Positions 144 through 56,225 of a stretch of 64,000 nt of DNA are shown here, piece after piece. Below the pieces are notes generated by a model. The model was given only the letters and a program-made list of their open reading frames with translations. It was not told the DNA's origin and did no database searches. This DNA comes from a virus. The translations under genes were made by a program, and so were the position numbers. The stretch is taken from IMG/VR virus record IMGVR_UViG_3300028027_000061; one strand, written 5' to 3'. The first letter of the stretch is position 1. Every line of letters starts with the position of its first letter.

Positions 144-218
144 GCAGGATTAGCTCAGCGGTAGAGCATCTCGTTTACACCGAGGCGGTCGGCGGTTCAA
201 TCCCGTCATCCTGTACCA
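144..218 (+). tRNA. tRNA-Val (anticodon TAC)
   Basis: Cloverleaf folds by eye. Acceptor gcaggat/atcctgt, anticodon loop tttacac, T-loop ttcaatc, encoded CCA. Confidence 0.7.
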
Positions 219-219
219 G

Positions 220-295
220 TGCCCCATGGTGCAATTGGCAGCACGTCTGATTTTGATTCAGAAGGTTCCACGTTCGAGTCGTGGTGGGGCATCCA
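220..295 (+). tRNA. tRNA-Gln (anticodon TTG)
   Basis: Acceptor tgcccca/tggggca, anticodon stem tctga/tcaga with loop ttttgat, T-arm ccacg-ttcgagt-cgtgg, CCA present. Confidence 0.7.
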
Positions 296-300
296 GATTA

Positions 301-390
<90 letters not shown>

Positions 391-397
391 TAATAAA

Positions 398-434
398 AAG
401 TGCCAAGGAAAAAAACTTGGCACTTTTTTTATTT
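398..434 (+). terminator. rho-independent terminator after tRNA cluster 1
   Basis: Hairpin gtgccaag-(loop)-cttggcac followed by T7-ATTTT. Confidence 0.6.
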
Positions 435-436
435 TA

Positions 437-469
437 GGGCTTGACAATTTCTACATTTCGAGGTATAGT
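437..469 (+). promoter_or_regulatory. early sigma70-like promoter (GGGCTTGACA-N17-TATAGT)
   Basis: TTGACA at 441-446 and TATAGT at 464-469. Member of a repeated promoter family. Followed by RBS aaaggaaat and an ATG. Confidence 0.6.
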
Positions 470-496
470 GATATTATAGTTTGAAAGGAAATCGTT

Positions 497-682
497 ATGG
501 AAGTTTTTGTTTTGAAGGGTGGCATCGGGGTTCAGTTGGGCGTCTATGCATCTGAAGATGAAGCACGGGATGCCCACGGTGTATACATTCGTGACGGCGG
601 TCGGTTCCTCGATTCCTACTATATCGTGCGGCAAGTAGTTGGTGCAACTGCAGATGCCGATGCGGATCGGATCTGGATCTAA
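497..682 (+). CDS. small protein, first of three tandem paralogs (MEVFVL...GVYASEDEA)
   Basis: ORF with RBS aaaggaaatcgttATG just downstream of the promoter. Paralogous to 699-902 and 924-1100. Confidence 0.5.
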   Translation: MEVFVLKGGIGVQLGVYASEDEARDAHGVYIRDGGRFLDSYYIVRQVVGATADADADRIWI

Positions 683-698
683 AGAAAGGAAATTGGTT

Positions 699-902
699 AT
701 GGAAGTTTTTGTTTTGATGGGTGCGATGGATCACGATGCGCATTACGTTCTTGGTGTTTATGCTTCTGAACAAGAAGCAGTAGATGCTTTGGGTGTTTAC
801 CTTCGTGACCTCGATGAATCGTGGCATGATGAGTATTATGTCGATCGCCGTGTGCTCGGTGCACATGCGGAATATGATTCCGATCCTCATCGGTACCTCT
901 AA
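699..902 (+). CDS. small protein, tandem paralog 2 (MEVFVLMG...GVYASEQEA)
   Basis: Same N-terminus and same RBS (aaaggaaattggttATG) as 497-682. Confidence 0.5.
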   Translation: MEVFVLMGAMDHDAHYVLGVYASEQEAVDALGVYLRDLDESWHDEYYVDRRVLGAHAEYDSDPHRYL

Positions 903-923
903 AGTTTTTATGGAAGGTTGATT

Positions 924-1100
924 ATGCAAGTTTATGTCGTGAACAATGAATCTCCTGGTGGAGATCACTCGATTATGGTTGGTATCTACTCGACCGAAGA
1001 AAAGGCGAGAGAGATGATCAAATTCTTGGAACGTGAAACTCCTGAATGGTATCCTACCTACTCAGTTGAAGACGTTGATCCAGAAGATCCGATGTATTAA
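924..1100 (+). CDS. small protein, tandem paralog 3 (MQVYVVNN...GIYSTEEKA)
   Basis: Shares the V-hydrophobic-x-x-G-hydrophobic-Y-[AS]-[ST]-E-[DEQ]-[EK]-A motif. The track start at 918 is a TTG, so the ATG at 924 is the more likely start. Confidence 0.45.
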   Translation: MQVYVVNNESPGGDHSIMVGIYSTEEKAREMIKFLERETPEWYPTYSVEDVDPEDPMY

Positions 1101-1105
1101 AGTTT

Positions 1106-1181
1106 AGACGAGTAGCTCAATGGTTAGAGCCGACCGCTCATAACGGTTTGGTTGGGGGTTCGAGTCCCTCCTCGTCTACCA
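1106..1181 (+). tRNA. tRNA-Met (anticodon CAT)
   Basis: Acceptor agacgag/ctcgtct, anticodon loop ctcataa, three G-C pairs in the anticodon stem, T-loop ttcgagt, CCA. Confidence 0.7.
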
Positions 1182-1241
1182 GTTAGGGTTGCTACTTAAT
1201 AGGCACGCGAGGAATCACGGTTAGTTCCTCAACCAGTTTAC

Positions 1242-1317
1242 GGATCATTAGCTCAGTTGGTAGAGCAGCGGACTCTTAATCCGCTTGTCGTAGGTTCGAT
1301 CCCTACATGATCCACCA
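1242..1317 (+). tRNA. tRNA-Lys (anticodon CTT)
   Basis: Acceptor ggatcat/atgatcc, anticodon stem gcgga/tccgc, loop ctcttaa, T-loop ttcgatc, CCA. Confidence 0.7.
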
Positions 1318-1322
1318 GTTTC

Positions 1323-1398
1323 GGACGCTTAGCTCAGTAGGTAGAGCAACGGGCTTTTAACCTGTTGGTCCTGGGTTCGAGTCCCAGAGCGTCCACCA
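1323..1398 (+). tRNA. tRNA-Lys (anticodon TTT)
   Basis: Acceptor ggacgct/agcgtcc, anticodon loop cttttaa, T-arm ctggg-ttcgagt-cccag, CCA. Confidence 0.7.
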
Positions 1399-1415
1399 TT
1401 TTAAAGGAGTTTGTT

Positions 1416-1592
1416 ATGAGTAAAATGATACTTGCATTTCTGTTCATTTTTACCTGTGTGTTCTTCGGTATTCAAATTGTTCGCGATTTGAATAAATCTG
1501 AAAAATTAAGCTTGACTAAATTGCTTGCTTATAGTATAGTGTGTACTGTGATTACGATGGTCGTGATTACTTCAATTGTTTTGATTTTCTAA
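1416..1592 (+). CDS. small hydrophobic membrane protein
   Basis: RBS aaaggagtttgttATG. Two predicted TM stretches. The track's N-terminal extension overlaps the tRNA and is rejected. Confidence 0.45.
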   Translation: MSKMILAFLFIFTCVFFGIQIVRDLNKSEKLSLTKLLAYSIVCTVITMVVITSIVLIF

Positions 1593-1606
1593 GGAATAAA
1601 GTTATT

Positions 1607-2404
1607 ATGAAAAGTGTTACTAAAGTCGTTCTTCTCGCTGGTCTGATGGCAACGACTGCTGCCTGTACTCGTATTGAAACAGGTGAAGTTGGTGTTCGGC
1701 GTTCGTTCGACAAGACCATTGAAACTACTGAGTTGATGCCAGGATCAATCAACCAGACAATGTTCGGTGATGTTATGACATTCCCAACCAAGGACGTGCA
1801 GGTTGATGTTTCTGACTTGACTCCACTTGCGTCGGACAACTCGACAGTTGCTGACTTTGACATGGCAGTAATCTATTCGATTAATCCTGGTTCGGTTGCC
1901 GAACTGTATATCGAAAAGAATCGTGGTTTCCATGCTGACACTGAAGAAGGCGATACACTTTTGATGTATAATTACATTCGTCAGTTGGGTCGTAATGCTG
2001 CCTACAAGGTTGCTCGTCGTTACGAGTCATTGAAGATGGCAGACAATCGTGCTGAGATTGAGCAACTGGTTCGCCAAGAGATTGTCGCGCAACTTGCTTC
2101 TGAGAAACTCGATGGTGCTATCTCGATTTCACAGGTTCTTGTTCGTCAGGTAAAACCTGCTGCGAATATCGTAGCGTCTGCTAACCAACTTGTCCAGGCA
2201 CAAAACGCTGAGAAGCAGAAGTTGGTAGAGGTTCGTACCGCAAAGTTGGAAGCAGAACGTATTGCTGCTCTTAATGCCAACGCTGGTGCTACTAAATACA
2301 TGGAAGCAACTGCTCTCGTGACAATCGCGGAAGCAGTTAAGGAAGGTAAGGTTTCTACCATTATTGTTCCTTATGACTTCAAGGGTATCGTGAACGTCAA
2401 GTAA
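1607..2404 (+). CDS. SPFH/band-7 (prohibitin/HflKC-like) lipoprotein
   Basis: Signal peptide with lipobox (LAGLMATTAAC). Central SPFH-like region followed by a coiled-coil A/E/Q-rich tail. Confidence 0.5.
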   Translation: MKSVTKVVLLAGLMATTAACTRIETGEVGVRRSFDKTIETTELMPGSINQTMFGDVMTFPTKDVQVDVSDLTPLASDNSTVADFDMAVIYSINPGSVAELYIEKNRGFHADTEEGDTLLMYNYIRQLGRNAAYKVARRYESLKMADNRAEIEQLVRQEIVAQLASEKLDGAISISQVLVRQVKPAANIVASANQLVQAQNAEKQKLVEVRTAKLEAERIAALNANAGATKYMEATALVTIAEAVKEGKVSTIIVPYDFKGIVNVK

Positions 2405-2413
2405 GTTTGAATG

Positions 2414-2499
2414 GAAGGTGGGCAGGACGGTAATGCAACGCACTGCTAATGCGTCTACCAGAAATGGTAGAGTGGGTTCGACTCCCACACCTTCCGCCA
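2414..2499 (+). tRNA. tRNA-Ser (anticodon GCT), class II
   Basis: Acceptor ggaaggt/accttcc, anticodon loop ctgctaa, long variable arm, T-arm gtggg-ttcgact-cccac, CCA. Confidence 0.7.
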
Positions 2500-2500
2500 T

Positions 2501-2578
2501 GGTGGATGTAGCTCAGTTGGTTAGAGTGTCGGCTTGTGATGCCGAATGTCGCGGGTTCAAGTCCCGTCATTCACCCCA
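2501..2578 (+). tRNA. tRNA-His (anticodon GTG) with encoded G-1
   Basis: Extra 5' G followed by acceptor gtggatg/cattcac. C discriminator (a His identity element). Anticodon loop ttgtgat. CCA. Confidence 0.7.
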
Positions 2579-2579
2579 T

Positions 2580-2655
2580 GGGGATGTAGTCCAAAGGCAG
2601 AGACAGAGGACTTAAAATCCTTCCAGTGTGGGTTCGAGTCCCACCATCCCTACCA
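2580..2655 (+). tRNA. tRNA with anticodon TAA (Leu by anticodon) but class-I architecture, with no long variable arm
   Basis: 76 nt. Acceptor ggggatg/catccct, anticodon stem gagga/tcctt with loop cttaaaa, 5-nt variable loop, T-arm gtggg-ttcgagt-cccac, CCA. Leu/Ser/Tyr tRNAs normally have a long arm. Confidence 0.5.
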
Positions 2656-2659
2656 TTTC

Positions 2660-2735
2660 GCGTCTGTAGCTCAGTTGGTAGAGCACTCCCCTGATAAGGG
2701 AGAGGTCGCAGGATCGAGGCCTGCCAGACGCACCA
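2660..2735 (+). tRNA. tRNA-Ile (anticodon GAT)
   Basis: Acceptor gcgtctg/cagacgc, anticodon stem ctccc/gggag with loop ctgataa. T-loop atcgagg is unusual (A at position 54). CCA. Confidence 0.65.
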
Positions 2736-2737
2736 AT

Positions 2738-2809
2738 GCCAGCAGTGCAAGTGCACGACTGACTCTCATAAGGTTGGTTCGGTAGGAGCGTTACCTACTG
2801 CTGGTACCA
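2738..2809 (+). ncRNA. degenerate tRNA-like element or small stable RNA (72 nt, ends ...tgctggtACCA)
   Basis: 7-bp acceptor-like pairing gccagca/tgctggt plus ACCA, and a CAT-containing loop. The D and T arms are non-canonical. Confidence 0.3.
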
Positions 2810-2810
2810 T

Positions 2811-2888
2811 GTCACGATGGCAGAGTGGTCCAATGCACAGGTCTGCAAAACCTGAAAACCGTGGGTTCGAATCCCACTCGTGACTCCA
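2811..2888 (+). tRNA. tRNA-Cys (anticodon GCA)
   Basis: Acceptor gtcacga/tcgtgac, anticodon stem caggt/acctg with loop ctgcaaa, T-arm gtggg-ttcgaat-cccac, CCA. Confidence 0.6.
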
Positions 2889-2905
2889 TTCTAAAGGAAT
2901 ATATA

Positions 2906-3142
2906 ATGACAGATGTTATTGCAATTGATAAGTATCGTTTGTTGGTTGAGCGTATCGAAACCATTGAACAAGAAATTGATGCCAAGAAACTAGATCGTAA
3001 GAATGTTTACGCTGATGTTAAGAGCGAAGGTTACGATGTTAAGGCAACTCGCCAGATTATTCGCCTCCGCAAAAAGGAAGCGCATGTTCGGCAAGAAGAA
3101 GATATGATTCTTGAAACATATCGCACTGCTATTGGTCTATGA
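2906..3142 (+). CDS. gapR: GapR/DUF2312-family DNA-binding protein
   Basis: 78 aa. ...LLVERIETIEQEIDAKKLDRKNVYADVKSEGYDVKATRQIIRLRKKE... resembles the alphaproteobacterial nucleoid protein GapR (recalled as IERIERLEEEK...DVYAEAKGNGFD.K.LRK...LRK). RBS aaaggaatatataATG. Confidence 0.65.
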   Translation: MTDVIAIDKYRLLVERIETIEQEIDAKKLDRKNVYADVKSEGYDVKATRQIIRLRKKEAHVRQEEDMILETYRTAIGL

Positions 3143-3147
3143 TTTAT

Positions 3148-3222
3148 GGCCCCGTCGTCTACTGGCTAGGACACGTCACTTTCACTGACGAGAAGGCGGA
3201 TCGAAACCGCTCGGGGCTACCA
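3148..3222 (+). tRNA. tRNA-Glu (anticodon TTC)
   Basis: Acceptor ggccccg/cggggct, anticodon stem cgtca/tgacg with loop ctttcac, T-arm ggcgg-atcgaaa-ccgct, CCA. Confidence 0.65.
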
Positions 3223-3234
3223 TAAAGGAATGAC

Positions 3235-3987
3235 ATGGATATATTAGTCGCATTACTTACGTCAAGAGACTCTATCAAACTAACCAGATGCATCGAGAGT
3301 GTTCTTCCTCAAACCAGTAATGTGGTTGTGGTATGCAACACTCTCGATTTTTCATATGTAGAACAGGCAAGAAAAGTTGCCGATGCATATAATCTAGAGT
3401 TTTTAGTTACTGAATCTAATGGCACACCAGCGAGAGGAAAGAACTCTGTTCTAGAGATTTTCCGATCGCGATCGCACGCATATTACATGCAAGTTGATGC
3501 GGATGATTATCTTACTCCCGATGCATTGATCAAACTTGACAAGATTGTAACTGAGAATCCAGATGTTGATGTCATTGGTTTAGTCGATGGAGCGATGACG
3601 TATAATGGAAGTGCAACAACCAGTAATGCATTTTTGTCCAATGGTAATGTGTTCAAATTTGCTGACGTGCAGGGTACACATAAACTGCGATTAGTAGAAC
3701 TTGGTAAATTATTATCGAGCAATCTACAGTATAATCGAATGCTGTTGTATTCAAGCAAGGCAATAAACACCTTTGACTTTGACGAGAAATTTATTGGATC
3801 AGAAGATATTGTTGCATCTTATAAATTATACTATGATCCAGATATAAATTATGTTCTAACGGATGAGCATCTTTATGTGTATGACTTGGAAGATAGTGGC
3901 AATTTCCATACCTTCTTGAGTAATGCGTCTGAAATTAAGAAAGTACTTAAAGAATTGAAAGTCATTTTGAATGAGTCTGCAGTATAA
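3235..3987 (+). CDS. GT-A fold (family-2-like) glycosyltransferase
   Basis: N-terminal beta-alpha start with a DxD-like motif (QVDADDYL). Confidence 0.4.
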   Translation: MDILVALLTSRDSIKLTRCIESVLPQTSNVVVVCNTLDFSYVEQARKVADAYNLEFLVTESNGTPARGKNSVLEIFRSRSHAYYMQVDADDYLTPDALIKLDKIVTENPDVDVIGLVDGAMTYNGSATTSNAFLSNGNVFKFADVQGTHKLRLVELGKLLSSNLQYNRMLLYSSKAINTFDFDEKFIGSEDIVASYKLYYDPDINYVLTDEHLYVYDLEDSGNFHTFLSNASEIKKVLKELKVILNESAV

Positions 3988-4606
3988 AACAGATCTGAAA
4001 ACAGCAATAAAGATTGTGGGTAAATTGATTAAAAAACCACACAACACAATCTTTTTGTTTCAGTTACTGCATGCTACGAACGCACCTTCTTTGAAGTGGA
4101 CATATCAAAAACTACTGGAAACAGAGCAGGGTGGTGGGGTCGCATATTCATCAGAAGAAGTATACGAATACTTTCCTACTCTTGTGAATAGACCAGAAGG
4201 TTCTGTCGGTAAACACTGCTACGATATGTTCCCGAACCAAGAACTCCTGATAAAAATAAGCAAACGAAAATCTAACGATACCTGGATTGAAGCGAAGCAT
4301 CCATACAATTGGATGGCAAGAAGATACAGAGATACACACGACACATGGCACATACTAACAGGGTATGATACAACCATACTGGGGGAGATGTGTCTTGCGA
4401 TGTTCTCCTTTGCGCAAACTAAATCGCTCGGTTGGTTGCTCATTTCATTTGTTGGGTTTGTCCACAGAGGGATGAAACTGTCTGACATTGGTTTGATACG
4501 ACAAGCATATTTACGAGGAAAGAATGCCAAGTTCTTACTTGCAGAGAATTATGATAAATTGTTCGATGAGGATTTAATCGCAGCAAGAGCACGGTTGGGT
4601 CTATGA
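3971..4606 (+). CDS. COQ4-family protein (HDxxH-x11-E zinc motif)
   Basis: Motif RDTHDTWHILTGYDTTILGE matches the COQ4 signature HDxxH(x)11E. Confidence 0.45.
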   Translation: MSLQYKTDLKTAIKIVGKLIKKPHNTIFLFQLLHATNAPSLKWTYQKLLETEQGGGVAYSSEEVYEYFPTLVNRPEGSVGKHCYDMFPNQELLIKISKRKSNDTWIEAKHPYNWMARRYRDTHDTWHILTGYDTTILGEMCLAMFSFAQTKSLGWLLISFVGFVHRGMKLSDIGLIRQAYLRGKNAKFLLAENYDKLFDEDLIAARARLGL

Positions 4607-5226
4607 TTCGTATTGACAGTAATTATCCTATAGAAGAAATGTTGGAATTCTGTAAAGAATCCAAGAATGACACACGTCCTGGTGCCGTTAATATGGATTT
4701 CGTTGACTGGGAAAACAAACCACATACTCTACTATATCTTCTGTATAAAGAGAAGAGATTCGATGGCCCCACAAACGGATATGTAATCTGCAAGAAAGGT
4801 GATCGAATTGTTTGTGGTCATGGATTTTATGTCTCAGAAATAGATAGAATGGTATGCATGGGATGCCGCACCTATACTGTTCCAGGTATAAATTGTCATG
4901 CATTACAGGGCGACATCAAAGACTTCATTTTCGATATTGTTAGAAAAAATGGGATGGCAGGGTTTTTTATCTCGATGAACGAATATAATAAACGATTCGT
5001 CCATGGGTATAATAAAATTAATGATCCCGTCAATTTCAAAACTTCTTTTCGTGATGAAACTGGACAGTGGTGGGCGAGGAAAGATAGAAAAATCTCTCCG
5101 ACAGTACCATGCGACTTCCCGATTAACTTGAAAAATGTAAAACAGTGGATTATATATCATTTGTGGGATTCTTCCTATGAAGAAGAATTGAATGTGAAAT
5201 TGAAAACTTTGGAATGGATTGATTGA
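4603..5226 (+). CDS. hypothetical protein
   Basis: 207-aa ORF. Its start overlaps the upstream stop (ATGA). Confidence 0.4.
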   Translation: MIRIDSNYPIEEMLEFCKESKNDTRPGAVNMDFVDWENKPHTLLYLLYKEKRFDGPTNGYVICKKGDRIVCGHGFYVSEIDRMVCMGCRTYTVPGINCHALQGDIKDFIFDIVRKNGMAGFFISMNEYNKRFVHGYNKINDPVNFKTSFRDETGQWWARKDRKISPTVPCDFPINLKNVKQWIIYHLWDSSYEEELNVKLKTLEWID

Positions 5227-6824
5227 TGGCATTAGATGGTATCATTTTTGGTGGGATGATCAATTCAGACGAACCAACACGACCACAGGATTTGTCTGGC
5301 ATCAGTTATAGTTCTGTTCACAGAAGCGCAGGTTCTCATAGAATTGCCTCGTTCTTACGTCAACATGGACTTGACATTGAAGTCGTAGATTTCGCCCCAT
5401 CTTGGAAATTTGAAGAATTTCAAGAGTTGATTCGTTCCCGAATGACACCAACAATGAAGTTTGTTGGACTCGGTGCGGTGTTCAATATGAACACGCAAAC
5501 TCTCTTTCGGTGTTTTGCTTGGTTGAAACAGACTTATCCAGATGTACTGTTGGTAACAGGATCCACTGATTTTTATAATCTTCACTTCATTCCAGTAGAC
5601 TACATGGTGGTTGGTTATGGCGAACTCGCTATTTTGGAGATCTTAAACGGTACTGCAAAATATACTGACGAGGTTATTGATAAGGAAGGTAACAAGCGTC
5701 GAACGGTTCATGCACTTAAACAGTATCCTGCGTATCCAATGCGTAATCTTTCAATCGATTATGAAAAACGAGATTTCCTACAACCATTTGAGTTGCTTAC
5801 TATGGAAACAAGTCGTGGGTGTAGATTTAAGTGTGCGTTTTGCACTTATCCTGTTTTGGGAGTGAAAGATGATCATACCAGATGCTCTGATGACTTTCAT
5901 GATAATCTTATGCGTAACTATGATAACTATGGTGTCTATCGATATTCGATCGCAGACGAAACTTTTAATGATCACAGCGAGAAAATTGTCAAGTACGCAG
6001 ACGTTGTAGAGAAACTTCCATTTAAACCAAATTTCGGTGGATATATCAGAGCAGATTTGCTGCACACAAGACCACAAGATATAGAACAGTTAGCAAGAAT
6101 GCGATTCAACGGGCAGTTCTATGGTGTCGAATCCTTCCATCGTCCAAGTGCTGCTGCCATTGGTAAAGGGATGGATCCTGCTAAAATACAGCAAGCAATT
6201 CTTGACACCAAGGATTACTTCATGAAACACAATGGATACTATCGAGGAACCCTCAGTTTTATTGTAGGATTGCCGCACGAGACAGAAGAAACTATGAACG
6301 AAACAATTAAATGGTGTGACGAAAACTGGAAAACCAACAGTATGCAATGGACTTCATTGATTATTGCCAGCGATCACGCCAATGTTAAGCAAAACACATT
6401 ATCTACGACGTATGAAAAGCAAGGTTATACTCTTGTTGATTCAGAAGAAATTATGCTCGATGAATCTCATCCTGATCTCAAACGAATACTGCAAAGCAAT
6501 TTTGTAGTCCCGGAATTAAAGACTTACATGCAGACCATTGTCCGTAATCTAAAACCAACGGTATTGTTACATCACTGGAAAAGCAATACAGGTATGACAG
6601 AAAGAGATGCCTTGTTGTGGATTGCCAATAATGTCTGGGGTGCCGAAAAGTATATGAATTTCGGAGTAGAACATTGGAAAATGGCAGAATGGTATGTTGC
6701 AGGTAAAACTGATCAGGATATGATGGGTTCGTATCAGGATCTAGGTGGTGTTAGACCGTCACTACATACTAAAATTGATTTTATTGAAAAATATAAGCAA
6801 CAAAAACTTAATGTCACGCAGTAA
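5223..6824 (+). CDS. B12-binding (class B) radical SAM enzyme
   Basis: N-terminal Rossmann/cobalamin-binding-like region. CxxxCxxC motif TSRGCRFKCAFCTYP. 533 aa. Confidence 0.6.
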   Translation: MMALDGIIFGGMINSDEPTRPQDLSGISYSSVHRSAGSHRIASFLRQHGLDIEVVDFAPSWKFEEFQELIRSRMTPTMKFVGLGAVFNMNTQTLFRCFAWLKQTYPDVLLVTGSTDFYNLHFIPVDYMVVGYGELAILEILNGTAKYTDEVIDKEGNKRRTVHALKQYPAYPMRNLSIDYEKRDFLQPFELLTMETSRGCRFKCAFCTYPVLGVKDDHTRCSDDFHDNLMRNYDNYGVYRYSIADETFNDHSEKIVKYADVVEKLPFKPNFGGYIRADLLHTRPQDIEQLARMRFNGQFYGVESFHRPSAAAIGKGMDPAKIQQAILDTKDYFMKHNGYYRGTLSFIVGLPHETEETMNETIKWCDENWKTNSMQWTSLIIASDHANVKQNTLSTTYEKQGYTLVDSEEIMLDESHPDLKRILQSNFVVPELKTYMQTIVRNLKPTVLLHHWKSNTGMTERDALLWIANNVWGAEKYMNFGVEHWKMAEWYVAGKTDQDMMGSYQDLGGVRPSLHTKIDFIEKYKQQKLNVTQ

Positions 6825-6835
6825 TAAATATTGCC

Positions 6836-7396
6836 ATGACAGAAAAAATGAAAATCGCAATTACAGGACATACTAGTGGACTTGGGCTTAGCATATACAA
6901 CCACTTCAATCAAAAACCTGAATGCGCAGTGAGAGGAATAAGCAGGGCAACAGGATTCGATCTAACAACTGATGCAGATGAAGTTATCCAACTAATCAAA
7001 TCAAACAACTTTGATTATTTCTTCAATAATGCATATGTTGATGGTGTTCAATCTAAACTGTTGCGGGAATTGTCTGAGCATACATGCGTAATATCATCTG
7101 GGTCTATGGCAGCAGATGCAGCGCAGGTAAAACGCGAACCATATTATGTGAACAAATTTGATTTAGAGTGCACGCATAGATCGATTAAAAGAAATAATAA
7201 ATTACCTATGTTATTGCTGAAGATGGGATATCTGGAGAACTATGTGGATAAAGAACCTGTCTCATATGACACAATCGTAAGTGCTATAGATTTCTGGATG
7301 CAGAATCCTAGAGTGAGTATGATTGAATTTGACAACATAAACTATTCAAAAAACTTTCCAGAAATTAACAAATACATCGAACAAAAAAATGATTAA
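6836..7396 (+). CDS. Rossmann-fold NAD(P)-binding protein (SDR-like)
   Basis: N-terminal KIAITGHTSGLGLSIY, a TGxxxGxG-type dinucleotide-binding motif. Confidence 0.45.
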   Translation: MTEKMKIAITGHTSGLGLSIYNHFNQKPECAVRGISRATGFDLTTDADEVIQLIKSNNFDYFFNNAYVDGVQSKLLRELSEHTCVISSGSMAADAAQVKREPYYVNKFDLECTHRSIKRNNKLPMLLLKMGYLENYVDKEPVSYDTIVSAIDFWMQNPRVSMIEFDNINYSKNFPEINKYIEQKND

Positions 7397-7907
7397 GGTT
7401 ATCGGTAACATAGATATAGATCTGGTCGTTAACCAGTACAAGGCGATTGAAGACCAAATACAGTGGGTGGAGATGCCTCCACACCACAAACAAGCAGGTT
7501 TGCAGTATGCCGAAGAAACAGAAAATCTCTGGGCAGGTGGAACAGGAAAACTGACAGGTCTGGTCAATCCAGAGCATCAATATAACAATCTAAATCCATT
7601 GTTACGAGGAACTATTTTCGAAGATATTATCAATGAGCACAAATTGGTAAGAACTCGCTTTATGTGGGTAAATCGTATGAGTTGTTACAGTGTGCATAGA
7701 GATCTGAGTCCTAGAGTGCATGTTCCAATAATTACAAATCCAGAATGCTATTTCGTACTCAAACAAGGTTCAGAAGGATTGATTGAGCACCTACCAGCAG
7801 GTAAGGTTTACTGGGCTGACACACGCATACACCACACATTCATGAATTGCTCACTGGAACCAAGATTGCACCTGATTGGTGTTCCTGTCAGCGAACAAAA
7901 TTATTAG
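7389..7907 (+). CDS. cupin-type 2OG/Fe(II) oxygenase-like (Asp/Asn beta-hydroxylase-like)
   Basis: HRD...RIHH pattern (YSVHRD ... DTRIHHTF). Weak. Confidence 0.3.
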   Translation: MIKVIGNIDIDLVVNQYKAIEDQIQWVEMPPHHKQAGLQYAEETENLWAGGTGKLTGLVNPEHQYNNLNPLLRGTIFEDIINEHKLVRTRFMWVNRMSCYSVHRDLSPRVHVPIITNPECYFVLKQGSEGLIEHLPAGKVYWADTRIHHTFMNCSLEPRLHLIGVPVSEQNY

Positions 7908-7915
7908 GAGTTATT

Positions 7916-8233
7916 ATGCCAGTATATGATTTTATAAACACAGAAACAGGTGAAGAGTGGGAAGAAAAGATGTCATACGATGACATGAAAACACTCACGA
8001 ACGATGGAACAGTTAAGATTCTCTACAAGAAGATTAACTTCTTGCATGCTCCTGGTTCCGACGGTGGCGGGAAGGTTCCTGATCACTTCAAGGAAGTCAT
8101 GTCTCGCGTCGCCGATGCCAATCCCAATTCTCCTCTCGCAAAGGAGTATGGTTCTAAATCTGCCAAGGATGTTAAGACACGTGATGTGGTAGAAAAAATC
8201 AGAAAAAAAGCAGGTGGATCTCTAATTGGATGA
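7916..8233 (+). CDS. hypothetical protein
   Basis: RBS ggagttattATG. The track's N-terminal extension is rejected. Confidence 0.4.
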   Translation: MPVYDFINTETGEEWEEKMSYDDMKTLTNDGTVKILYKKINFLHAPGSDGGGKVPDHFKEVMSRVADANPNSPLAKEYGSKSAKDVKTRDVVEKIRKKAGGSLIG

Positions 8234-9252: not shown

Positions 9253-9683
9253 TGACTAAATGGACTGAGCGATTTCTAGATCTTGCCGAACATATCGGCA
9301 CGTGGTCATATGACCCTCGTACCAAGCTGGGTGCAGTGATTGTTGATGACCGCAATCGTATCATTTCCATTGGTTACAACGGATTCCCTCGTGGTGTATT
9401 AGATAAGGCGGAACGATATGAAGACCGTCCCACTAAGCATCTGTTTGTAGCACACGCTGAACGTAATGCGCTGGACAATTCACCCATGAGTGTTGAGGGA
9501 TGTACGCTGTATGTCCCACTGCTCCCATGCAACGAATGCGCCAAGAGCATCATCCAACGTGGTATCTCGAAGGTGGTCAGTTACCATCCCGATCGCGAGG
9601 ACACATTCAACTGGGATATTACCAAGCAGATGTTCCACGAAGCAGCTGTTGCATTGCAATTGGTGCATAAAAATGAAGTTTGA
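9249..9683 (+). CDS. cd: dCMP (deoxycytidylate) deaminase
   Basis: Zinc-binding CDA motifs HAERNA ... PCNECAKSI. Size matches T4 Cd. The exact start (9231, 9249 or 9252) is uncertain. Confidence 0.75.
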   Translation: MMTKWTERFLDLAEHIGTWSYDPRTKLGAVIVDDRNRIISIGYNGFPRGVLDKAERYEDRPTKHLFVAHAERNALDNSPMSVEGCTLYVPLLPCNECAKSIIQRGISKVVSYHPDREDTFNWDITKQMFHEAAVALQLVHKNEV

Positions 9684-10233
9684 TGTTCTACAAAACGCAG
9701 TCGTCTTCAGGAACGTGTTTGAAGATCTTTCGGCGTTTATCGAAAACCAGAAAGAAAAAACACTCATCGAAAGCGGAATTGTTCGATCAAATAATGCTGG
9801 TTATGACAAAGACTTTCGGTATTCATCACAAGCAAATGTTAGTTCTTCAAATCCTGTAGTAGAGAAGATTCGTGAGTTGTCCAGGTATGCGAATGAAAAT
9901 CACTTTAGGATAAACATCTCGAAATATTCGCATGAGAATCATTTTGTGCAGTATGATGTGAATGGTAAGTTTGATGCACATAGTGATATTATCTGGAGGG
10001 CAGATGTCGACAATCTAGACATGTATCCTGTTCGTAAAATCACTTGTGTTACACTACTGAATGATGATTTCGCAGGTGGTAAGTTGGCACTCTGGTATAC
10101 AGGGCAGAGATACAGTTTTCCCTTCAATAAGGGCGACGTGATTCTGTTTCCCTCATATGTTCAACATAAAGTTGATCCAGTCGAGTCAGGTGTCAGATAC
10201 AGTTTAGTTTCATGGTCTTATGGTGAATTTTAA
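9673..10233 (+). CDS. 2OG-Fe(II) oxygenase (prolyl-4-hydroxylase/PhyH-like)
   Basis: HxD...H facial triad (DAHSD ... VQHKV) in a jelly-roll-like context. Confidence 0.45.
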   Translation: MKFDVLQNAVVFRNVFEDLSAFIENQKEKTLIESGIVRSNNAGYDKDFRYSSQANVSSSNPVVEKIRELSRYANENHFRINISKYSHENHFVQYDVNGKFDAHSDIIWRADVDNLDMYPVRKITCVTLLNDDFAGGKLALWYTGQRYSFPFNKGDVILFPSYVQHKVDPVESGVRYSLVSWSYGEF

Positions 10234-19928: not shown

Positions 19929-20207
19929 ATGGTCGAGTGGCAAGACTGCCTACTACTGGGTGGAGTATCACTTTTGATTGTAACTTACCTACCATGGTTG
20001 ATGTCTGCCATGACTATCTGGATGACGTTGCTGGCAGGTAACAATCATCCACGTGCATGGGCAGTTGGACTGATCAATCAGGTGTTCTGGGTAACATGGA
20101 TTATTGCCAGTCAGACGTGGGGACTGATTCCCATGAGCATTGCACTGGGCATTGTCTATGCTCGTAATCATTTTAAATGGAATACAAAGGAGAAATCTAA
20201 TGCTTGA
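19929..20207 (+). CDS. small multi-TM membrane protein
   Basis: Three hydrophobic helices. Confidence 0.35.
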   Translation: MVEWQDCLLLGGVSLLIVTYLPWLMSAMTIWMTLLAGNNHPRAWAVGLINQVFWVTWIIASQTWGLIPMSIALGIVYARNHFKWNTKEKSNA

Positions 20208-20616
20208 ATGTTTAATTATGGGTGACAGTATCGCAGTTGGCACCAAGATGTTTGCACCCACTGAGTGCGTATCCTACTCCAAGGGTGGATACAACACGTG
20301 GCAGTGGAACAAACGCTGGGGTAGCACACCACTGGAAGCAAAGACTGTAGTAATCAGTCTGGGTACCAATGATCACAACGGTGTGAATACCTTCAAAGAA
20401 CTGTCGAAGGTTCGATATCGTATTCGCTCCGTGAAGGTCGTATGGATTATGCCTCCGTGTAACAGTGGATTCTGCAAACCCAAGGTAAATGCCGTCGTAA
20501 AGCAGATTGCTGCACAATACAATGATGTCACTATCTCTACATCCTATGTCCAACCTGACAAAATCCATCCATCATGGCGTGGATACAAGGATCTGGTAAA
20601 GAAGTCTGGTATCTGA
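20200..20616 (+). CDS. SGNH/GDSL-type hydrolase
   Basis: Block I MGDSIAVG and block III GTNDH. Confidence 0.5.
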   Translation: MLECLIMGDSIAVGTKMFAPTECVSYSKGGYNTWQWNKRWGSTPLEAKTVVISLGTNDHNGVNTFKELSKVRYRIRSVKVVWIMPPCNSGFCKPKVNAVVKQIAAQYNDVTISTSYVQPDKIHPSWRGYKDLVKKSGI

Positions 20617-24975: not shown

Positions 24976-25212
24976 ATGCCAAGAAAAAAAATTGCTGCGG
25001 CCAACACAGAGTCTCCAGAGGTCGCACAGGAAACTGTGGTGGAAACTGCACCTACATACTACGAATACATAACACCTGATGGTATCTCTGTGCTGCTCGA
25101 CCGCTATGAATGGTCAAGGGGTCTTGGTCTATCAGATAAGAACGTAAAGAAAGCGCAAGCAGCACGGCATCGTGAGGTTGCCAAGGGGTTTGCCAGAACT
25201 GAGGAAGCATAA
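24976..25212 (+). CDS. hypothetical protein
   Basis: 78 aa. Confidence 0.35.
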   Translation: MPRKKIAAANTESPEVAQETVVETAPTYYEYITPDGISVLLDRYEWSRGLGLSDKNVKKAQAARHREVAKGFARTEEA

Positions 25213-25820
25213 TGGAATACCAACAATATATCGACTCTAATGGAAACATCATAAGAATGCTAAGTCATGATGCCACATACACTGCATCAACTACAGATTA
25301 TCTAATGGATAATGGTTATGGTCACGTAACTGGACAGATATCTGATCATGACACATTGGCATTTAGAGCGATTATTGAAAAAATGCCACAGCATTTTCGT
25401 ATGGTAGAACTGGGTTCAATGTATGGTGCATCAGCAGTTACATTTGCACTACTTGCTTATGAGATGCGTAAGACCTGCGAAATTCTTTGTATTGATTGCT
25501 TTGGATTGCCAAACCAACTGGAAACATTCAAACAAAACACTATGGACTTCAGTAATATCAGTTATCGAGCAGAATACTTTAATGATGCTTTTGAGTACGA
25601 TGGTGGGCCGATTGACTTATACTTTGACGATGCGAGTCATATCGAAAGACCTACATATAAGCAGTTGGTGTATTGGAGTCAGTATGCCAAGAACATTGCG
25701 GTTCATGACTACACTGCAGAGTGGGAAGGTAACATTGCCGCAGTGGATAAATTTGCTTCCGAGCGAGCAGCGACTGTGCAGCGATTTGATGAATCGAGTG
25801 TCGTGTTACTGGAGTTGTAA
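25212..25820 (+). CDS. class I SAM-dependent methyltransferase-like
   Basis: Motif I-like VELGSMYGASAV. Motif post-I LYFDDASH. Confidence 0.4.
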   Translation: MEYQQYIDSNGNIIRMLSHDATYTASTTDYLMDNGYGHVTGQISDHDTLAFRAIIEKMPQHFRMVELGSMYGASAVTFALLAYEMRKTCEILCIDCFGLPNQLETFKQNTMDFSNISYRAEYFNDAFEYDGGPIDLYFDDASHIERPTYKQLVYWSQYAKNIAVHDYTAEWEGNIAAVDKFASERAATVQRFDESSVVLLEL

Positions 25821-28575: not shown

Positions 28576-29913
28576 ATGGTTAAAGTTATTGTCGCCGATT
28601 CTAAACTAGATTGCGAGCATCTGCTCGGTCAATATCTAGATGAGAGTCATTTCGACATTGTGGTCAATGAAGATACAGACTGTTATAAAGAGTCTGATTC
28701 TCTGCTCGATACAGAGTTGACTGAAAACAGGATTGCATTTAAGTTTCGTAAGAACTTCTTCTCGCCAGAAGAACAGGAGCAGGCATACATTGGTCTGCGC
28801 GAAGCAGCAACCGAATCACAGAATCGTGGTCTGGCAGCAGGTCCACGTGGTGAGTTGCTAGGCGTAGAAGGTCGCGGTGGTCGCGACTGGGTAACTGATT
28901 ACGAACTCGAGATTCTTGATTTTCTGATGACAGATAAGGGTCGACTGATCGACGAACTTAGTATCGAGAGCATTCGTGCTAAGCATGCAGGTGCACCACG
29001 ATCTAATGCAGATGAAACTCGAGGCGCAGTCTGGTTGCGCAGTCAAGTATGTAAAGTATATCCAGAATATTTTGGTTGGTTCGACGTATGGGTCGACAGT
29101 CTAGAAACAAAGAGTAAAGAAGATGTTGCAAAGGAAGCGCGAAATATCGCAGAGAACTGGATTTCAACAACCAACTATGCTAAGTCGGTTTTCTCAGGCG
29201 TTGCTGGATGGTATGACCGATATCCTAGAATTCCTTTCGGTCGTGCTACTACTTACACTCGTGACAATTTTGATAAGTTTAAGTTGGCCTTTCCTTTTCT
29301 ACAATCTCTTAATCGCGGGTTTAAAGAACTCCTCCCTCGGCGTTGGTCTAACCAAAAGAGTGCCGTGGATACAATCGATAGTCGATTCGTGGTCCCAGAA
29401 ACAGTATTCACCACGATCACCGTCAACAAGTCTTTCCGAACGGCAGCGCATCGTGACGCAGGCGATTTTGCTGATGGTCTCAGTAATCTTCTGGTCGTTG
29501 GTAGTGGTGACTATACTGGCGGTTATCTAATCTTTCCTGAGTATCGCATCGCAGTGAATGTTCGTCCAGGTGACTTGTTGCTAGTCAGCAATCATGAGAT
29601 CATTCACGGTAACACCGAGATTAAACTGACAAGTCCAGATGCTGAGCGTATTTCGTTGGTTTGCTATTTGCGCGAGAACATGCTAGAACTTGGTTCATAT
29701 GAATATGAAACAACTCGCGAGCAATATGTCATTGACCGCAGAACTAATAGAGAACACCACCACTATCGTCCACTCTGGAATGGCGTATCTCCAGGAATGT
29801 GGGACGAACAAGAATGGTATGACTACCTCGAAACTAAACTTGGTCGAGATACAGTTGCCAAGTATCATCCTAAAGCATACCAAACAACATCAACACTTGG
29901 AGATCTATTTTAA
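28576..29913 (+). CDS. TET/JBP-family 2OG-Fe(II) dioxygenase (nucleobase hydroxylase-like)
   Basis: HxD ... H core: TAAHRDAGDFADG ... GGYLIFPEY ... GDLLLVSNHEIIHG. 445 aa. Sits directly upstream of a GT-A glycosyltransferase. Confidence 0.5.
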   Translation: MVKVIVADSKLDCEHLLGQYLDESHFDIVVNEDTDCYKESDSLLDTELTENRIAFKFRKNFFSPEEQEQAYIGLREAATESQNRGLAAGPRGELLGVEGRGGRDWVTDYELEILDFLMTDKGRLIDELSIESIRAKHAGAPRSNADETRGAVWLRSQVCKVYPEYFGWFDVWVDSLETKSKEDVAKEARNIAENWISTTNYAKSVFSGVAGWYDRYPRIPFGRATTYTRDNFDKFKLAFPFLQSLNRGFKELLPRRWSNQKSAVDTIDSRFVVPETVFTTITVNKSFRTAAHRDAGDFADGLSNLLVVGSGDYTGGYLIFPEYRIAVNVRPGDLLLVSNHEIIHGNTEIKLTSPDAERISLVCYLRENMLELGSYEYETTREQYVIDRRTNREHHHYRPLWNGVSPGMWDEQEWYDYLETKLGRDTVAKYHPKAYQTTSTLGDLF

Positions 29914-30722
29914 TGGAATATAGTATTGCTATTCCGTCTTATCATCGTGAACATACTATTCAGAATAAGACGTTGAAAGTTCTTGAATCATATAACATCG
30001 ATCCTGCTAAAATCACGATCTTTGTTAATGATCAGGATGAAGGCGAATATGATCGATATGCTAATGCGTTGAAGGAAAACCCTTACGCAAAGGATATCCA
30101 GATTGTTCGTGGTGTTCCAACTATCGGAAAACAACGTAACTTTATTGAACGTTGGTATCCGGAAGGCACACGACTGATGATGTTCGATGATGATATTGAA
30201 GAAGTTCAAGTCAAAGTCAGTGAACAGAAGTTGGGTCGTGTCGAAGATCTCGAGCGAGAAATCTTTATTCGTGGATTTGAGGAATGCGAGAAGGTAGGTG
30301 CTAAGACCTTTGGTATCTACGCAGCATCGAATGCATTCTTTATGAAAGATCGAGTATACAATGACATTTGCTATATCATTGCCTCGATGTTTGGTGTGAT
30401 TGTTGAACATGATGATTTTCTCGCTCGAGTAACCAACCATGGTGAAGACTACGAATATTCTATTCGCCAGTATATTAAGAATGGTGTTCTTGCTCGCCTT
30501 GACAACTACACAGTCAAGTCTCGGTACTACAAGGAAGAAGGTGGACTTCAAGATGTTCGCACTAAGGAATATGTGTATGACAGTGTGAAGATTATTGCGG
30601 ACGAGTTCCCCGACCTTTGCACGATGTATATCCGCGAAACTACTGGACATGCTGAATTGAAACTGCATGACCGCAACAAGAAGTATCGTAAAGTAGAATC
30701 TTCACTAGAGGATCTATTTTAG
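29913..30722 (+). CDS. GT-A glycosyltransferase (TET-associated-like)
   Basis: IAIPSYHRE start and DxD-like MFDDDIEE. ATGG overlap with the upstream gene. Confidence 0.45.
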   Translation: MEYSIAIPSYHREHTIQNKTLKVLESYNIDPAKITIFVNDQDEGEYDRYANALKENPYAKDIQIVRGVPTIGKQRNFIERWYPEGTRLMMFDDDIEEVQVKVSEQKLGRVEDLEREIFIRGFEECEKVGAKTFGIYAASNAFFMKDRVYNDICYIIASMFGVIVEHDDFLARVTNHGEDYEYSIRQYIKNGVLARLDNYTVKSRYYKEEGGLQDVRTKEYVYDSVKIIADEFPDLCTMYIRETTGHAELKLHDRNKKYRKVESSLEDLF

Positions 30723-30759
30723 TATTGACTTATCCCTGTAAATGTAGTATAGTCAGTTA

Positions 30760-33751: not shown

Positions 33752-33819
33752 ATTACTAAAGGTCTTCACAATTGATTTTAATTTTTCTTCTGACAACAAA
33801 AACAAAAAGGAAGAGAAAA

Positions 33820-34269
33820 ATGCTAAAACGAGCGATGATGCTCCTGACGCTACTAAGTCTAAGTAGTCCAGCATACGCAGATCCTATAGTCCAACAGTTT
33901 AAATCACCTTCCTTTACAGGTTACGGGTGGTCTTCACACGTGCAGTCAATCGACGCACAAGAGCGTTCGCGAGAGCAGGCAATTAAAGATGCTGAGGCAG
34001 CAAAGGCAGCATTAGCAAGAGCAGAGGCATCTAATACGCCACTCGCCAAATTCATGGCGCTGTTTACCTCTCAGGTATATGCCCAACTTGCTACACAACT
34101 TTCGAACAATTTGTTCGCAGAAGGTGGGAATGCCAGTGCTGGAACATTTAACCTCGACGGTAACTCTGTGAGTTATGTAAAGACTGGGACAGAAGTTAGA
34201 CTAACAGTTGTCGATAAGAATGGCAATACTACAGTTGTTGTCGTTCCTATTGCTACATTCGCGTTTTAA
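33820..34269 (+). CDS. csgF: CsgF-like curli assembly protein
   Basis: Signal peptide (MLKRAMMLLTLLSLSSPAYA). The C-terminal ...SYVKTGTEVRLTVVDKNGNTTVVVVP resembles the CsgF beta-rich C-terminus. Immediately upstream of csgG. Confidence 0.45.
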   Translation: MLKRAMMLLTLLSLSSPAYADPIVQQFKSPSFTGYGWSSHVQSIDAQERSREQAIKDAEAAKAALARAEASNTPLAKFMALFTSQVYAQLATQLSNNLFAEGGNASAGTFNLDGNSVSYVKTGTEVRLTVVDKNGNTTVVVVPIATFAF

Positions 34270-34278
34270 GGCAGAGTT

Positions 34279-43186: not shown

Positions 43187-43189
43187 GAC

Positions 43190-50930: not shown

Positions 50931-50998
50931 AACTTATTTTGTTAAACGTTCGCACATCCGCCGAATGAAGAAAATAAGAAAACTAGATCCCTTTATCT

Positions 50999-56197: not shown

Positions 56198-56222
56198 CTT
56201 TCAAAGAAATCTATAGTATAAA
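56194..56222 (+). promoter_or_regulatory. promoter TTGACT-N17-TATAAA driving the tmRNA precursor
   Basis: Same family as the early promoters. No ORF follows. A structured RNA follows. Confidence 0.5.
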
Positions 56223-56225
56223 TAA

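Follow-up and report, generated by a model that had tools for sequence, protein, structure and literature searches.

We found that a family 2 glycosyltransferase (GT2) and a GNAT-fold acyltransferase-like protein form one evolutionary unit, because a phage protein exists in which the two are fused and a GNAT gene accompanies the GT2 gene wherever this could be assessed. The unit recurs with a third gene for a Coq4-family protein or for a fatty-acid desaturase; in the 64,000-nucleotide stretch of viral DNA analysed here (the window; IMG/VR record IMGVR_UViG_3300028027_000061) this third gene encodes Coq4. The window cassette is that of an uncultured marine, pelagimyophage-like T4-type phage and is probably expressed early or mid-infection. 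We tentatively propose that it remodels host membrane lipids and quinones, a reading that we regard as a serious possibility rather than an expectation.

Six coupled genes and their products

An earlier note on this DNA had described six genes directly after the tRNA block, and their positions and translational coupling were borne out; all six are plus-strand open reading frames. The first ATG lies 12 nt beyond the end of a tRNA-Glu gene (position 3222), 12 tRNA genes adjoin the cluster, and the junctions are, in order, a 17-nt overlap, an ATGA overlap, a TGATG overlap, an 11-nt spacer and an 8-nt overlap. Nothing resembling a terminator was found within the cluster. The T4 late-promoter motif was absent near it, with a whole-window count not above chance, and sigma-70-like sites showed no enrichment. 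A plus-strand gene for a phrog_385 protein (7916..8233, 105 aa; PHROG E 3e-12) marks the edge of the cassette, being downstream of it here and upstream of GT2 in most relatives. The window is T4-like (gp59, gp32 and a curli operon of the pelagimyophage type), and it carries a TET/JBP gene paired with a TET-associated glycosyltransferase (TAGT) gene at 28.6-30.7 kb. A dCMP deaminase gene lies near the cluster. A defence-system reading was dropped, PADLOC having given just a generic radical SAM candidate.

The first core gene (3235..3987, plus strand) encodes a GT-A fold glycosyltransferase of 250 aa, as originally proposed, with a match to PF00535 above cutoff (29.4 bits, cutoff 23.3; E 8.9e-7) and a DADD (DxD) motif, D88-A-D90-D91. 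D88, D90 and D91, together with E190-D191, are conserved without exception in 10 phage homologues. Among solved structures the closest are those of generic GT-A enzymes (3bcv, GalT1, TarS and TarP), and the acceptors of the solved relatives are polysaccharide, teichoic acid or protein and not lipid, which we count against a lipid reading. Comparison with the lipid-acceptor GT2 subfamilies (ArnC, GtrB, DPM1, HpnI and MgdA type) gave no NCBIfam match and no membrane anchor. A weak match (E 0.0017) is the sole PHROG match among the six cluster genes.

The second core gene (3971..4606, plus strand; 211 aa) encodes a Coq4-family protein whose metal motif is not fortuitous. PF05019 was matched over its full length (51.8 bits, cutoff 22.9; E 8.3e-14), with residues 21-210 aligned to profile positions 25-216 of 221, and the HDxxH-x11-E site is intact as HDTWH-x11-E (HDTWHILTGYDTTILGE), beginning at residue 123. 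H123, D124, H127 and E139 do not vary among 32 sequences of phage and cellular origin, and the C-terminal 100 residues match the solved structures 3msq (E 1.7e-7) and 6e12 (Alr8543; E 5e-7). The phage proteins form one clade, which is phage-only, and are at most 43% identical to cellular homologues (best 80 loci from 185,579 species genomes). Cellular Coq4 has N- and C-terminal extensions that the window protein lacks, and the proteins are otherwise of similar size. The supposition that Coq4 is normally mitochondrial or alphaproteobacterial did not hold, as the family is widespread in proteobacteria and cyanobacteria. In ubiquinone biosynthesis, the Zn-dependent COQ4 acts at C1 of polyprenyl-hydroxybenzoate by decarboxylation or oxidative decarboxylation, a function established for eukaryotic COQ4 only (PMC10680789, PMC13457866).

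The third core gene (4603..5226, plus strand; 207 aa), first listed as unknown, could be resolved: its product has a GNAT fold and is acyltransferase-like. No Pfam family matched the window protein, 10 distant members or the GNAT part of the fusion protein, and one relative carries PF00583. The acyl-CoA motif (Q/R-x-x-G-x-G/A) is degenerate in the sub-branch of the window protein, and distant members retain P-x-Y-R-G/N. A scan of 185,579 species genomes with one single pattern found no relatives of the family.

The fourth gene (5226..6824, plus strand; 532 aa), a frequent and dispensable tail gene, starts at an ATG at 5226, with an alternative TTG at 5223, and encodes a radical SAM enzyme with a putative N-terminal Rossmann domain of the B12-binding type. 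Of the proposed B12-binding radical SAM identity, the radical SAM half stood: PF04055 was matched at 44.5 bits (cutoff 29.5; E 2.5e-11), and the three cysteines of CRFKCAFC (CxxxCxxC; residue 199) are invariant in 35 homologues. The fold matches the class-B enzymes TsrM, MgmA, CysS and TokK, but scores are as good for RimO/MiaB and for AprD4, which is not known to use cobalamin. The B12-binding half is less firm, the match to PF02310 falling below cutoff (17.7 bits, cutoff 32.1), and several homologues have PF02310 on record; judged from sequence, cobalamin use is plausible. Among curated families, the highest scores went to class-B families that modify lipids (ladderane, HpnJ, HpnR), all far below threshold. 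The protein differs from class B enzymes (TsrM, CysS, TokK, MgmA and HpnR/HpnJ-type) in that its curated family scores lie 5-10x below the cutoffs and its C-terminal 160 residues are unmatched.

The two remaining tail genes are rare. The fifth (6836..7396, plus strand) encodes a short SDR-like Rossmann protein of 186 aa, compared with about 250 aa for a normal SDR. This assignment holds on motifs, namely TGHTSGLG at residue 10, NNAY at 64 and YYVNK (YxxxK) at 103; no profile match was above threshold (Pfam Epimerase, E 0.075; NF005436, E 0.003; PDB, E 0.44). The sixth (7389..7907, plus strand; 172 aa) encodes, in line with its first description as a cupin oxygenase, a 2OG/Fe(II) cupin of the Asp/Asn beta-hydroxylase family, which scored just below cutoff against PF05118 (Asp_Arg_Hydrox; 21.7 bits, cutoff 22.6). 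It is homologous to Cpz10 (PDB 7V4F; E 1.3e-15, residues 33-163), a 2OG/Fe(II) beta-hydroxylase with a small-molecule substrate in caprazamycin biosynthesis (PMC9814697). Both are small cupins, of about 180 aa, with HRD iron ligands aligned to each other over 130 residues. The caprazamycin system differs in that no other caprazamycin-type gene is present here and the phage cupin occurs in two phage loci only.

GT2 and the GNAT-fold protein form one evolutionary unit

We compared gene neighbourhoods across 64 IMG/VR loci encoding a Coq4 relative. The earlier note had treated the six genes as one set, and this did not survive the comparison: just GT2-Coq4-GNAT is constant, the trio being intact in 17 of the 64 loci while the genes downstream of it vary. 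Orthologues of the SDR (81% identity) and cupin (91% identity) genes were found together in one other locus only (L028), with a 30% SDR relative in L191. The order of the triad is held down to 35-46% identity, in the 360-kb contig L079. That contig was set aside as proof of independent triad transfer, its flanks resembling those of other relatives.

Full-length GT2 relatives (at least 30% identity) with enough downstream DNA defined 34 assessable loci, and GNAT is present in all of them. The third partner is Coq4 in 19 of the 34 and a fatty-acid desaturase instead in the other 15; one locus (L205) has both. The coupling is closest in a GT2::GNAT fusion protein (P0416), found on 17 contigs and followed by an overlapping FA_desaturase gene. 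Of the 17 loci without Coq4, 10 have the GNAT gene next to an FA_desaturase gene that is significant in Pfam, and a distant GNAT relative has two desaturase genes among its neighbours, together with genes for a fatty-acid hydroxylase and a B12-type radical SAM protein.

Coq4 behaves differently from this pair. In 46 of the 64 loci, belonging to another T4-like lineage, it stands alone in the structural module between gp17 (terminase) and gp18 (tail sheath), which implies that it does not need neighbouring genes; taken with a SPASM gene that separates Coq4 from GNAT in L163, this suggests that Coq4 may be functionally independent of its neighbours. GT2 and GNAT genes flank it in the window, whereas around the 80 closest cellular Coq4 genes neither was found at a distance of up to 5 kb.

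The regions around the triad are fluid. The slot next to the tRNA block has undergone insertions and rearrangements among relatives, and a UDP-glucose dehydrogenase-like gene lies ahead of the cassette in L009 and L071. Downstream of the triad, the radical SAM gene is frequent, yet several triad loci lack it; a relative of it stands alone in another phage (L164), and one variant occurs on more than 125 contigs. The variable tails also include GDSL/SGNH-like and sulfotransferase-like genes, and in relatives the triad is followed by genes for an AMP-binding ligase and for a class I methyltransferase. A QueC-like PP-loop gene in relatives was rejected as a link to 7-deazaguanine: its similarity to QueC is confined to the C-terminal 55 residues, the Zn-ribbon part, and the neighbours scanned included no transglycosylase gene and nothing else from the queuosine pathway.

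A proposed role in membrane lipids and quinones, and the alternatives

The earlier note had pointed to a sugar or isoprenoid/quinone-like tailoring pathway. Its lipid/quinone direction gains independent support, because GT2 and GNAT recur paired with fatty-acid desaturase genes, whereas its single six-gene pathway does not stand. If the cassette does act on host membranes, GT2 would transfer a sugar from a host nucleotide-sugar to a hydrophobic, membrane-resident acceptor, and the GNAT-fold enzyme would add an acyl group to the glycosylated product. By analogy with its characterised relatives, Coq4 would carry out Zn-dependent removal, or oxidative replacement, of the C1 carboxyl of a prenylated hydroxybenzoate, a step that would keep the quinone pool of the host supplied or divert it. 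The tail genes of the window would then supply phage-specific decorations: a radical reaction (C-methylation or other) by the radical SAM enzyme, keto/hydroxyl redox by the SDR and Cpz10-like beta-hydroxylation by the cupin.

Counted for the lipid reading are the invariant Coq4 metal ligands, the desaturase pairing, the GDSL/SGNH-like tail genes, the alternative oxidase, lipid, Fe-S assembly and cobalamin-related genes reported for pelagimyophages, and the persistence of the trio above changing downstream genes; DNA glycosylation, moreover, is already covered by the TET/TAGT pair. The best curated matches of the radical SAM enzyme, lipid-modifying though sub-threshold, were counted on the same side, and the dependence of that link on sub-threshold scores on the other. 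Also against it are the lack of TM helices (none in the six cluster proteins), of a gene in the cluster able to build a lipid scaffold and of a desaturase gene in the window, the GNAT protein without recognisable acyl-CoA motif or Pfam family, and the solitary Coq4 of 46 loci. No further ubi or coq genes were found among the window ORFs scanned. Where a phage region is hypervariable, moreover, neighbouring genes give little ground for assuming a common pathway.

Several other readings have to be weighed against remodelling of lipids and quinones. It is rather unlikely, if worth keeping in view, that superinfection is blocked through changes which the GT2, GNAT, SDR, hydroxylase and methylase make to the O-antigen, LPS core or capsule of the host, with Coq4 an unrelated passenger. 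The dehydrogenase-like gene ahead of the cassette in two loci, the sulfotransferase-like and SGNH-like genes in tails, and the inclusion of TarS, TarP and chondroitin synthase among solved GT2 relatives would suit such a role, as would the O-chain modification proposed for clusters of glycosyltransferase and LPS-type genes in pelagimyophages (PMC7029224). It would leave the recurrent coupling of GT2-GNAT to desaturases, and the fusion followed by a desaturase, without explanation, and the cassette offers no flippase, polymerase or sugar-nucleotide pathway, all its proteins being cytoplasmic and soluble. We doubt that all six enzymes work towards one tailored product, a glycoside or a quinone-like metabolite such as a phenolic glycoside or a liponucleoside-like compound. 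Against this stand the lack of conservation of the six genes as a set, the dispensable radical SAM gene, the replacement of Coq4 by a desaturase in 15 loci and the absence of a scaffold-forming enzyme; for it stand the translational coupling, the homology of the cupin to a small-molecule beta-hydroxylase and the ligase and methyltransferase genes of relatives. Decarboxylation of a hydroxybenzoate followed by glycosylation is coherent chemistry of the arbutin type, and this too was counted for a small-molecule pathway.

That the genes are independent and merely share a hypervariable slot by the tRNA block, Coq4 alone boosting ubiquinone and the others having targets of their own, is improbable. 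Lone Coq4 genes, the lone radical SAM relative, the instability of the slot and the tight packing normal in phages agree with independence, but the unbroken association of GT2 with GNAT, their fusion in one lineage and the retention of triad order at low identity do not. Post-translational modification of a RiPP-like peptide or of a virion or host protein is less probable again, given that no small precursor ORF lies in or beside the cluster, that desaturase and Coq4 partners are lipid enzymes and that the solved protein nearest to the cupin has a small-molecule substrate. Modification of tRNA or DNA, whether by glycosylation, acylation or methylation, is very improbable. The adjoining tRNA genes, the nearby dCMP deaminase and the QueC-like gene of relatives would suggest it; the separate TET/TAGT pair, the confinement of the QueC similarity to a short C-terminal part and the absence from the cluster of a transglycosylase or base-modifying kinase argue against it, and no link is known between nucleic acids and Coq4 or desaturases.

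A narrower version of the lipid and quinone proposal, which we think unlikely, would make GT2-Coq4-GNAT one phage-specific pathway in which the host's prenylated hydroxybenzoate, from which ubiquinone is made, is decarboxylated by Coq4, the quinol is glycosylated and acylated, and the product is, in this phage, further C-methylated, reduced and hydroxylated. Were this so, a virus-made quinol glycolipid would drain electrons or quinone from host respiration or mark the infected membrane, and GT2-GNAT of sister phages would act with a desaturase on acyl lipids instead.

Well-known phage auxiliary genes serve photosynthesis, nucleotide metabolism and, in a few cases, lipid desaturation. Neither a quinone-biosynthesis enzyme in phages nor a conserved glycosyltransferase-acyltransferase unit with a Coq4 or desaturase partner appears in the literature searched. 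Marine and freshwater metagenomes commonly contain the cassette genes, with 126 Coq4 protein clusters (90% identity) and 322 representative GNAT clusters (50% identity); the names of cluster members pointed to no function. The cassette may thus be a widespread means by which T4-like phages of abundant oligotrophic bacteria rewire respiratory membranes in the course of infection. Phage Coq4, a small soluble protein of bacterial type, would also be useful for biochemistry on an enzyme with a debated mechanism.

Comparison with known phage and bacterial systems

The earlier remark that this is not a described auxiliary-metabolic set was upheld in GenBank phages, by the near-absence of the genes from PHROGs and in the pelagimyophage table of auxiliary genes. 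DNA and protein searches of GenBank phages gave no match for the cluster, the radical SAM protein or Coq4; the set was found in no cultured phage and in none of the literature searched, the papers on COQ4 together with phages or auxiliary metabolic genes included. The pelagimyophage genes reported in Table S5 include ubiquinol oxidase (AOX), stearoyl-CoA desaturase, FabF and ACP, with Fe-S assembly genes, CobS/CobT and a B12 receptor also listed (PMC7029224). That paper reports many glycosyltransferase and LPS-type genes, UDP-glucose dehydrogenase among them, in small clusters, and radical SAM cassettes (PMC7029224). It thus concerns the same phage group and a variable, enzyme-rich region like that of the window. 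The difference is that its discussion centres on GT8 enzymes and O-antigen, the conserved GT2-Coq4-GNAT triad not being described; term searches of its main text and the supplements consulted found neither the GT2-GNAT partners nor Coq4 (PMC7029224). Phage lipid desaturases, known from cyanophages and listed for pelagimyophages in Table S5, are likewise O2-dependent enzymes acting on host membrane lipids (PMC5776448, PMC7029224). A desaturase takes the place of Coq4 beside GT2-GNAT in 15 loci, whereas the window itself has none, and a term search of the main text of the cyanophage paper found neither GT2-GNAT partners nor Coq4 (PMC5776448).

The Nod-factor, Arn-pathway and arbutin-type analogies were not kept as evidence, being analogies of chemistry that no homology supports. 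Profile searches detected no similarity to NodA, NodB or NodC, Coq4 is not a CE4 deacetylase, and the phage GT2, compared with NodC, is short, soluble and probably non-processive. The order of Nod-factor genes is NodC (a GT2), NodB (a metal enzyme) and NodA (an acyltransferase of ~200 aa), followed by variable tailoring genes for strain-specific methyl-, sulfo- and carbamoyl-type enzymes, which act on an acylated glycoconjugate. By analogy, the cassette may be read in the same order: GT2, metal enzyme, small acyltransferase and then variable tailoring genes.

A six-gene cassette in a T4-like phage

Six plus-strand ORFs were called directly after a block of 12 tRNA genes whose last member, tRNA-Glu, ends at 3222, as had been described from the sequence: a GT2 glycosyltransferase (gene 1, 3235-3987), Coq4 (gene 2, 3971-4606), a GNAT-fold acyltransferase-like protein (gene 3, 4603-5226), a radical SAM enzyme (gene 4, 5226-6824), an SDR-like protein (gene 5, 6836-7396) and a cupin (gene 6, 7389-7907). 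Genes 1 and 2 overlap by 17 nt, genes 2 and 3 at ATGA, and genes 3 and 4 at TGATG; 11 nt separate genes 4 and 5, and genes 5 and 6 overlap by 8 nt. We found no terminator-like hairpin within the cluster, and its G+C content (35-41%) is slightly lower than that of the flanks. ORFs are also interspersed among the tRNA genes (144-3222), including three small paralogs sharing a VGVYASE.EA-type motif (497-1100), an SPFH/Band-7 protein (1604-2404) and a GapR-like DNA-binding protein (2903-3142).

The window is part of a T4-like phage genome and encodes gp59, gp32 and PhoH. It carries a pelagimyophage hallmark set at 33772-40457, consisting of CsgF, CsgG, a curlin-repeat protein, a FecR-like protein and a CHASE2-adenylate/guanylate cyclase; the curli genes CsgF/CsgG are a pelagimyophage marker (PMC7029224), and the cyclase is 39% identical to its counterparts in Pelagibacter phage HTVC008M and Methylophilales phage Melnitz. 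Further tailoring-type enzymes are dispersed outside the cassette: a 2OG-Fe(II) oxygenase (9673-10233), a GDSL-like lipase/acylhydrolase (20140-20616), a Methyltransf_24 protein (25212-25820) and a TauD-family dioxygenase (55075-55989). Six consecutive radical SAM genes, two with N-terminal SPASM domains, occupy 41867-52423 together with the genes that follow; a 194-aa ORF comes after the first, and a 276-aa ORF and a carbamoyltransferase (50999-52423) after the run, which is probably the earlier reader's "first cluster". A permuted (two-piece type) tmRNA lies at 56200-56658 (Rfam RF04321, 83.9 bits at 56232-56567), with the tag ANDNVAFAGYALAA predicted by ARAGORN and T4-late-like TATAAATA motifs at 56217 and 56664.

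Gene 1 passes the Pfam threshold and its DADD motif is invariant, in keeping with the GT-A glycosyltransferase originally called. The earlier note had allowed that the COQ4 motif of gene 2 might be fortuitous; a full-length PF05019 match (E 8e-14), HDxxH-x11-E ligands invariant in 32 phage and cellular homologs, and sequence matches to the solved proteins 3MSQ and 6E12 instead mark it, by sequence, as a genuine Coq4. The small 2OG/Fe cupin encoded by gene 6 is homologous to Cpz10 (E 1.3e-15), the beta-hydroxylase of caprazamycin biosynthesis, which bears out the proposed cupin oxygenase. Gene 4, put forward as a B12-binding radical SAM enzyme, does belong to the radical SAM enzymes (motif CRFKCAFC), but its use of cobalamin is plausible and unproven because the N-terminal Rossmann domain resembles AprD4 and RimO as much as the cobalamin-dependent TsrM, MgmA, CysS and TokK. 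Gene 5 has the SDR motifs expected of the suggested reductase, but profile scores are weak and the protein is short (186 aa). No TM helix was found in any of the six proteins.

Distribution of the triad and its variable tail

Metagenomic relatives fell into 126 clusters for Coq4, >315 for radical SAM and, in an initial pass, 48 for GNAT. Neighborhoods were compared at 64 IMG/VR loci, each encoding a Coq4 relative. At 17 of these, GT2, Coq4 and GNAT follow one another in this order and occupy the genome slot that they have in the window; at 46, Coq4 stands by itself, flanked by the large terminase (gp17) and tail sheath (gp18) genes of another, uncultured T4-like lineage, whose TerL is ~55% identical to that of cyanomyophages, and one locus fits neither arrangement. 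The lone-Coq4 loci are among L033-L081, with L015 (8001-8765) as an example.

Phage Coq4s form a single clade, the triad and lone groups sharing 50% identity with each other and 32-36% with cellular proteins. Among the best 80 cellular loci, the closest Coq4s come from Caulobacterales and Sphingomonadales (≤43% identical), and no cassette genes were found within 5 kb of these 80. At the cellular locus L017 (6234-8783), a Coq4 (37% identical) lies divergent beside genes for a type III polyketide synthase and for an ICMT-type methyltransferase, an arrangement suggesting that the substrates of some bacterial Coq4s are alkyl-resorcylic-type acids and not ubiquinone precursors.

Genes 3' of the triad differ among loci. 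Some encode B12-type radical SAM or other radical SAM/SPASM enzymes, and others a second cupin, a QueC-like PP-loop protein, sulfotransferase-like or SGNH-like proteins, or a class I methyltransferase accompanied by an AMP-binding ligase; a fatty-acid desaturase gene appears there once. Among the loci compared, the window's SDR and cupin recur in L028 only. A 105-aa phrog_385 gene (7916-8233) lies 3' of the cassette in the window and in one relative (L020) and directly 5' of GT2 in most others, so the cassette occurs on either side of it.

A GT2-GNAT unit with lipid-enzyme partners

GNAT was present at all 34 loci where the GT2 relative was full-length and the sequence downstream was long enough to assess. 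The partner of the pair was Coq4 at 19 loci and a fatty-acid desaturase at 15, with both at one locus. P0416, a natural 458-aa GT2::GNAT fusion found on 17 contigs of one T4-like phage lineage, matches the window's GT2 (E 3e-31) and GNAT (E 4e-13), and a desaturase gene overlaps its stop codon. Where GNAT occurs without GT2 or Coq4, a Pfam-significant FA_desaturase adjoins it at 10/17 loci, and a distant member has two desaturase genes as neighbors, along with genes for a fatty-acid hydroxylase and a B12-type radical SAM enzyme. GT2 and GNAT form one unit whose partner is a lipid enzyme. As evidence on function, this co-occurrence, fusion and desaturase adjacency weigh most, and they direct attention to membrane lipids.

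In the fusion loci (L192-L194, with the gene at 8001-9377 in L192, and L222-L227), P0416 is followed by the desaturase, two ORFs without an assigned family, a cytidylyltransferase-like gene and a second GT2. L189 (4225-9900) has five paralogous fatty-acid desaturase-like genes around GNAT and a B12-type radical SAM relative.

[quoted passage not shown] Proteins already credited to pelagimyophages are ubiquinol oxidase (AOX), cytochrome c, stearoyl-CoA desaturase, FabF, ACP, Fe-S assembly proteins, a B12 receptor and CobS/CobT (PMC7029224 Table S5). On these grounds, with the gene associations above, we tentatively interpret the cassette as a unit for remodeling membrane lipids and quinone, a possibility we favor while giving it somewhat less than an even chance. 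The further pocket of 6E12 reportedly holds a bound isoprenoid. The gene associations are observed; for the chemistry we infer that GT2 and GNAT would build or alter a glycoconjugate that is acylated and sits on a hydrophobic acceptor, that Coq4 would supply or divert quinone, and that the tail enzymes would diversify the product.

The main rival, modification of envelope glycans, has already been proposed for pelagimyophage glycosyltransferases, and we hold it to be unlikely here. The earlier note saw all six genes as one small-molecule tailoring pathway, a view that now seems rather improbable, as four of the six vary across loci. That the genes are independent passengers seems more doubtful again, and protein or peptide modification slightly more so. 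Nucleic-acid modification is very improbable. A separate TET/TAGT pair in the window already covers DNA glycosylation: at 28576-31878, consecutive genes encode a TET/JBP 2OG oxygenase, a TET-associated glycosyltransferase and a DruA-like protein, in what looks like a set for cytosine-C5 DNA hypermodification.

Comparison with described phage genes

GenBank phages gave no match similar to the cassette, and no paper joining COQ4 with phages or auxiliary metabolic genes was found in the literature searched, in agreement with the initial impression that this is not a described auxiliary-metabolic set. Term searches of the cyanophage desaturase paper (PMC5776448, main text) and the pelagimyophage paper (PMC7029224, main text and supplements) returned neither GT2-GNAT partners nor Coq4 in those texts, and Coq4 is absent from the pelagimyophage gene list (PMC7029224 Table S5). 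Phage auxiliary genes acting on host membranes are of an already known kind, and there is a modest chance that the cassette hides a new, virus-specific lipid pathway.
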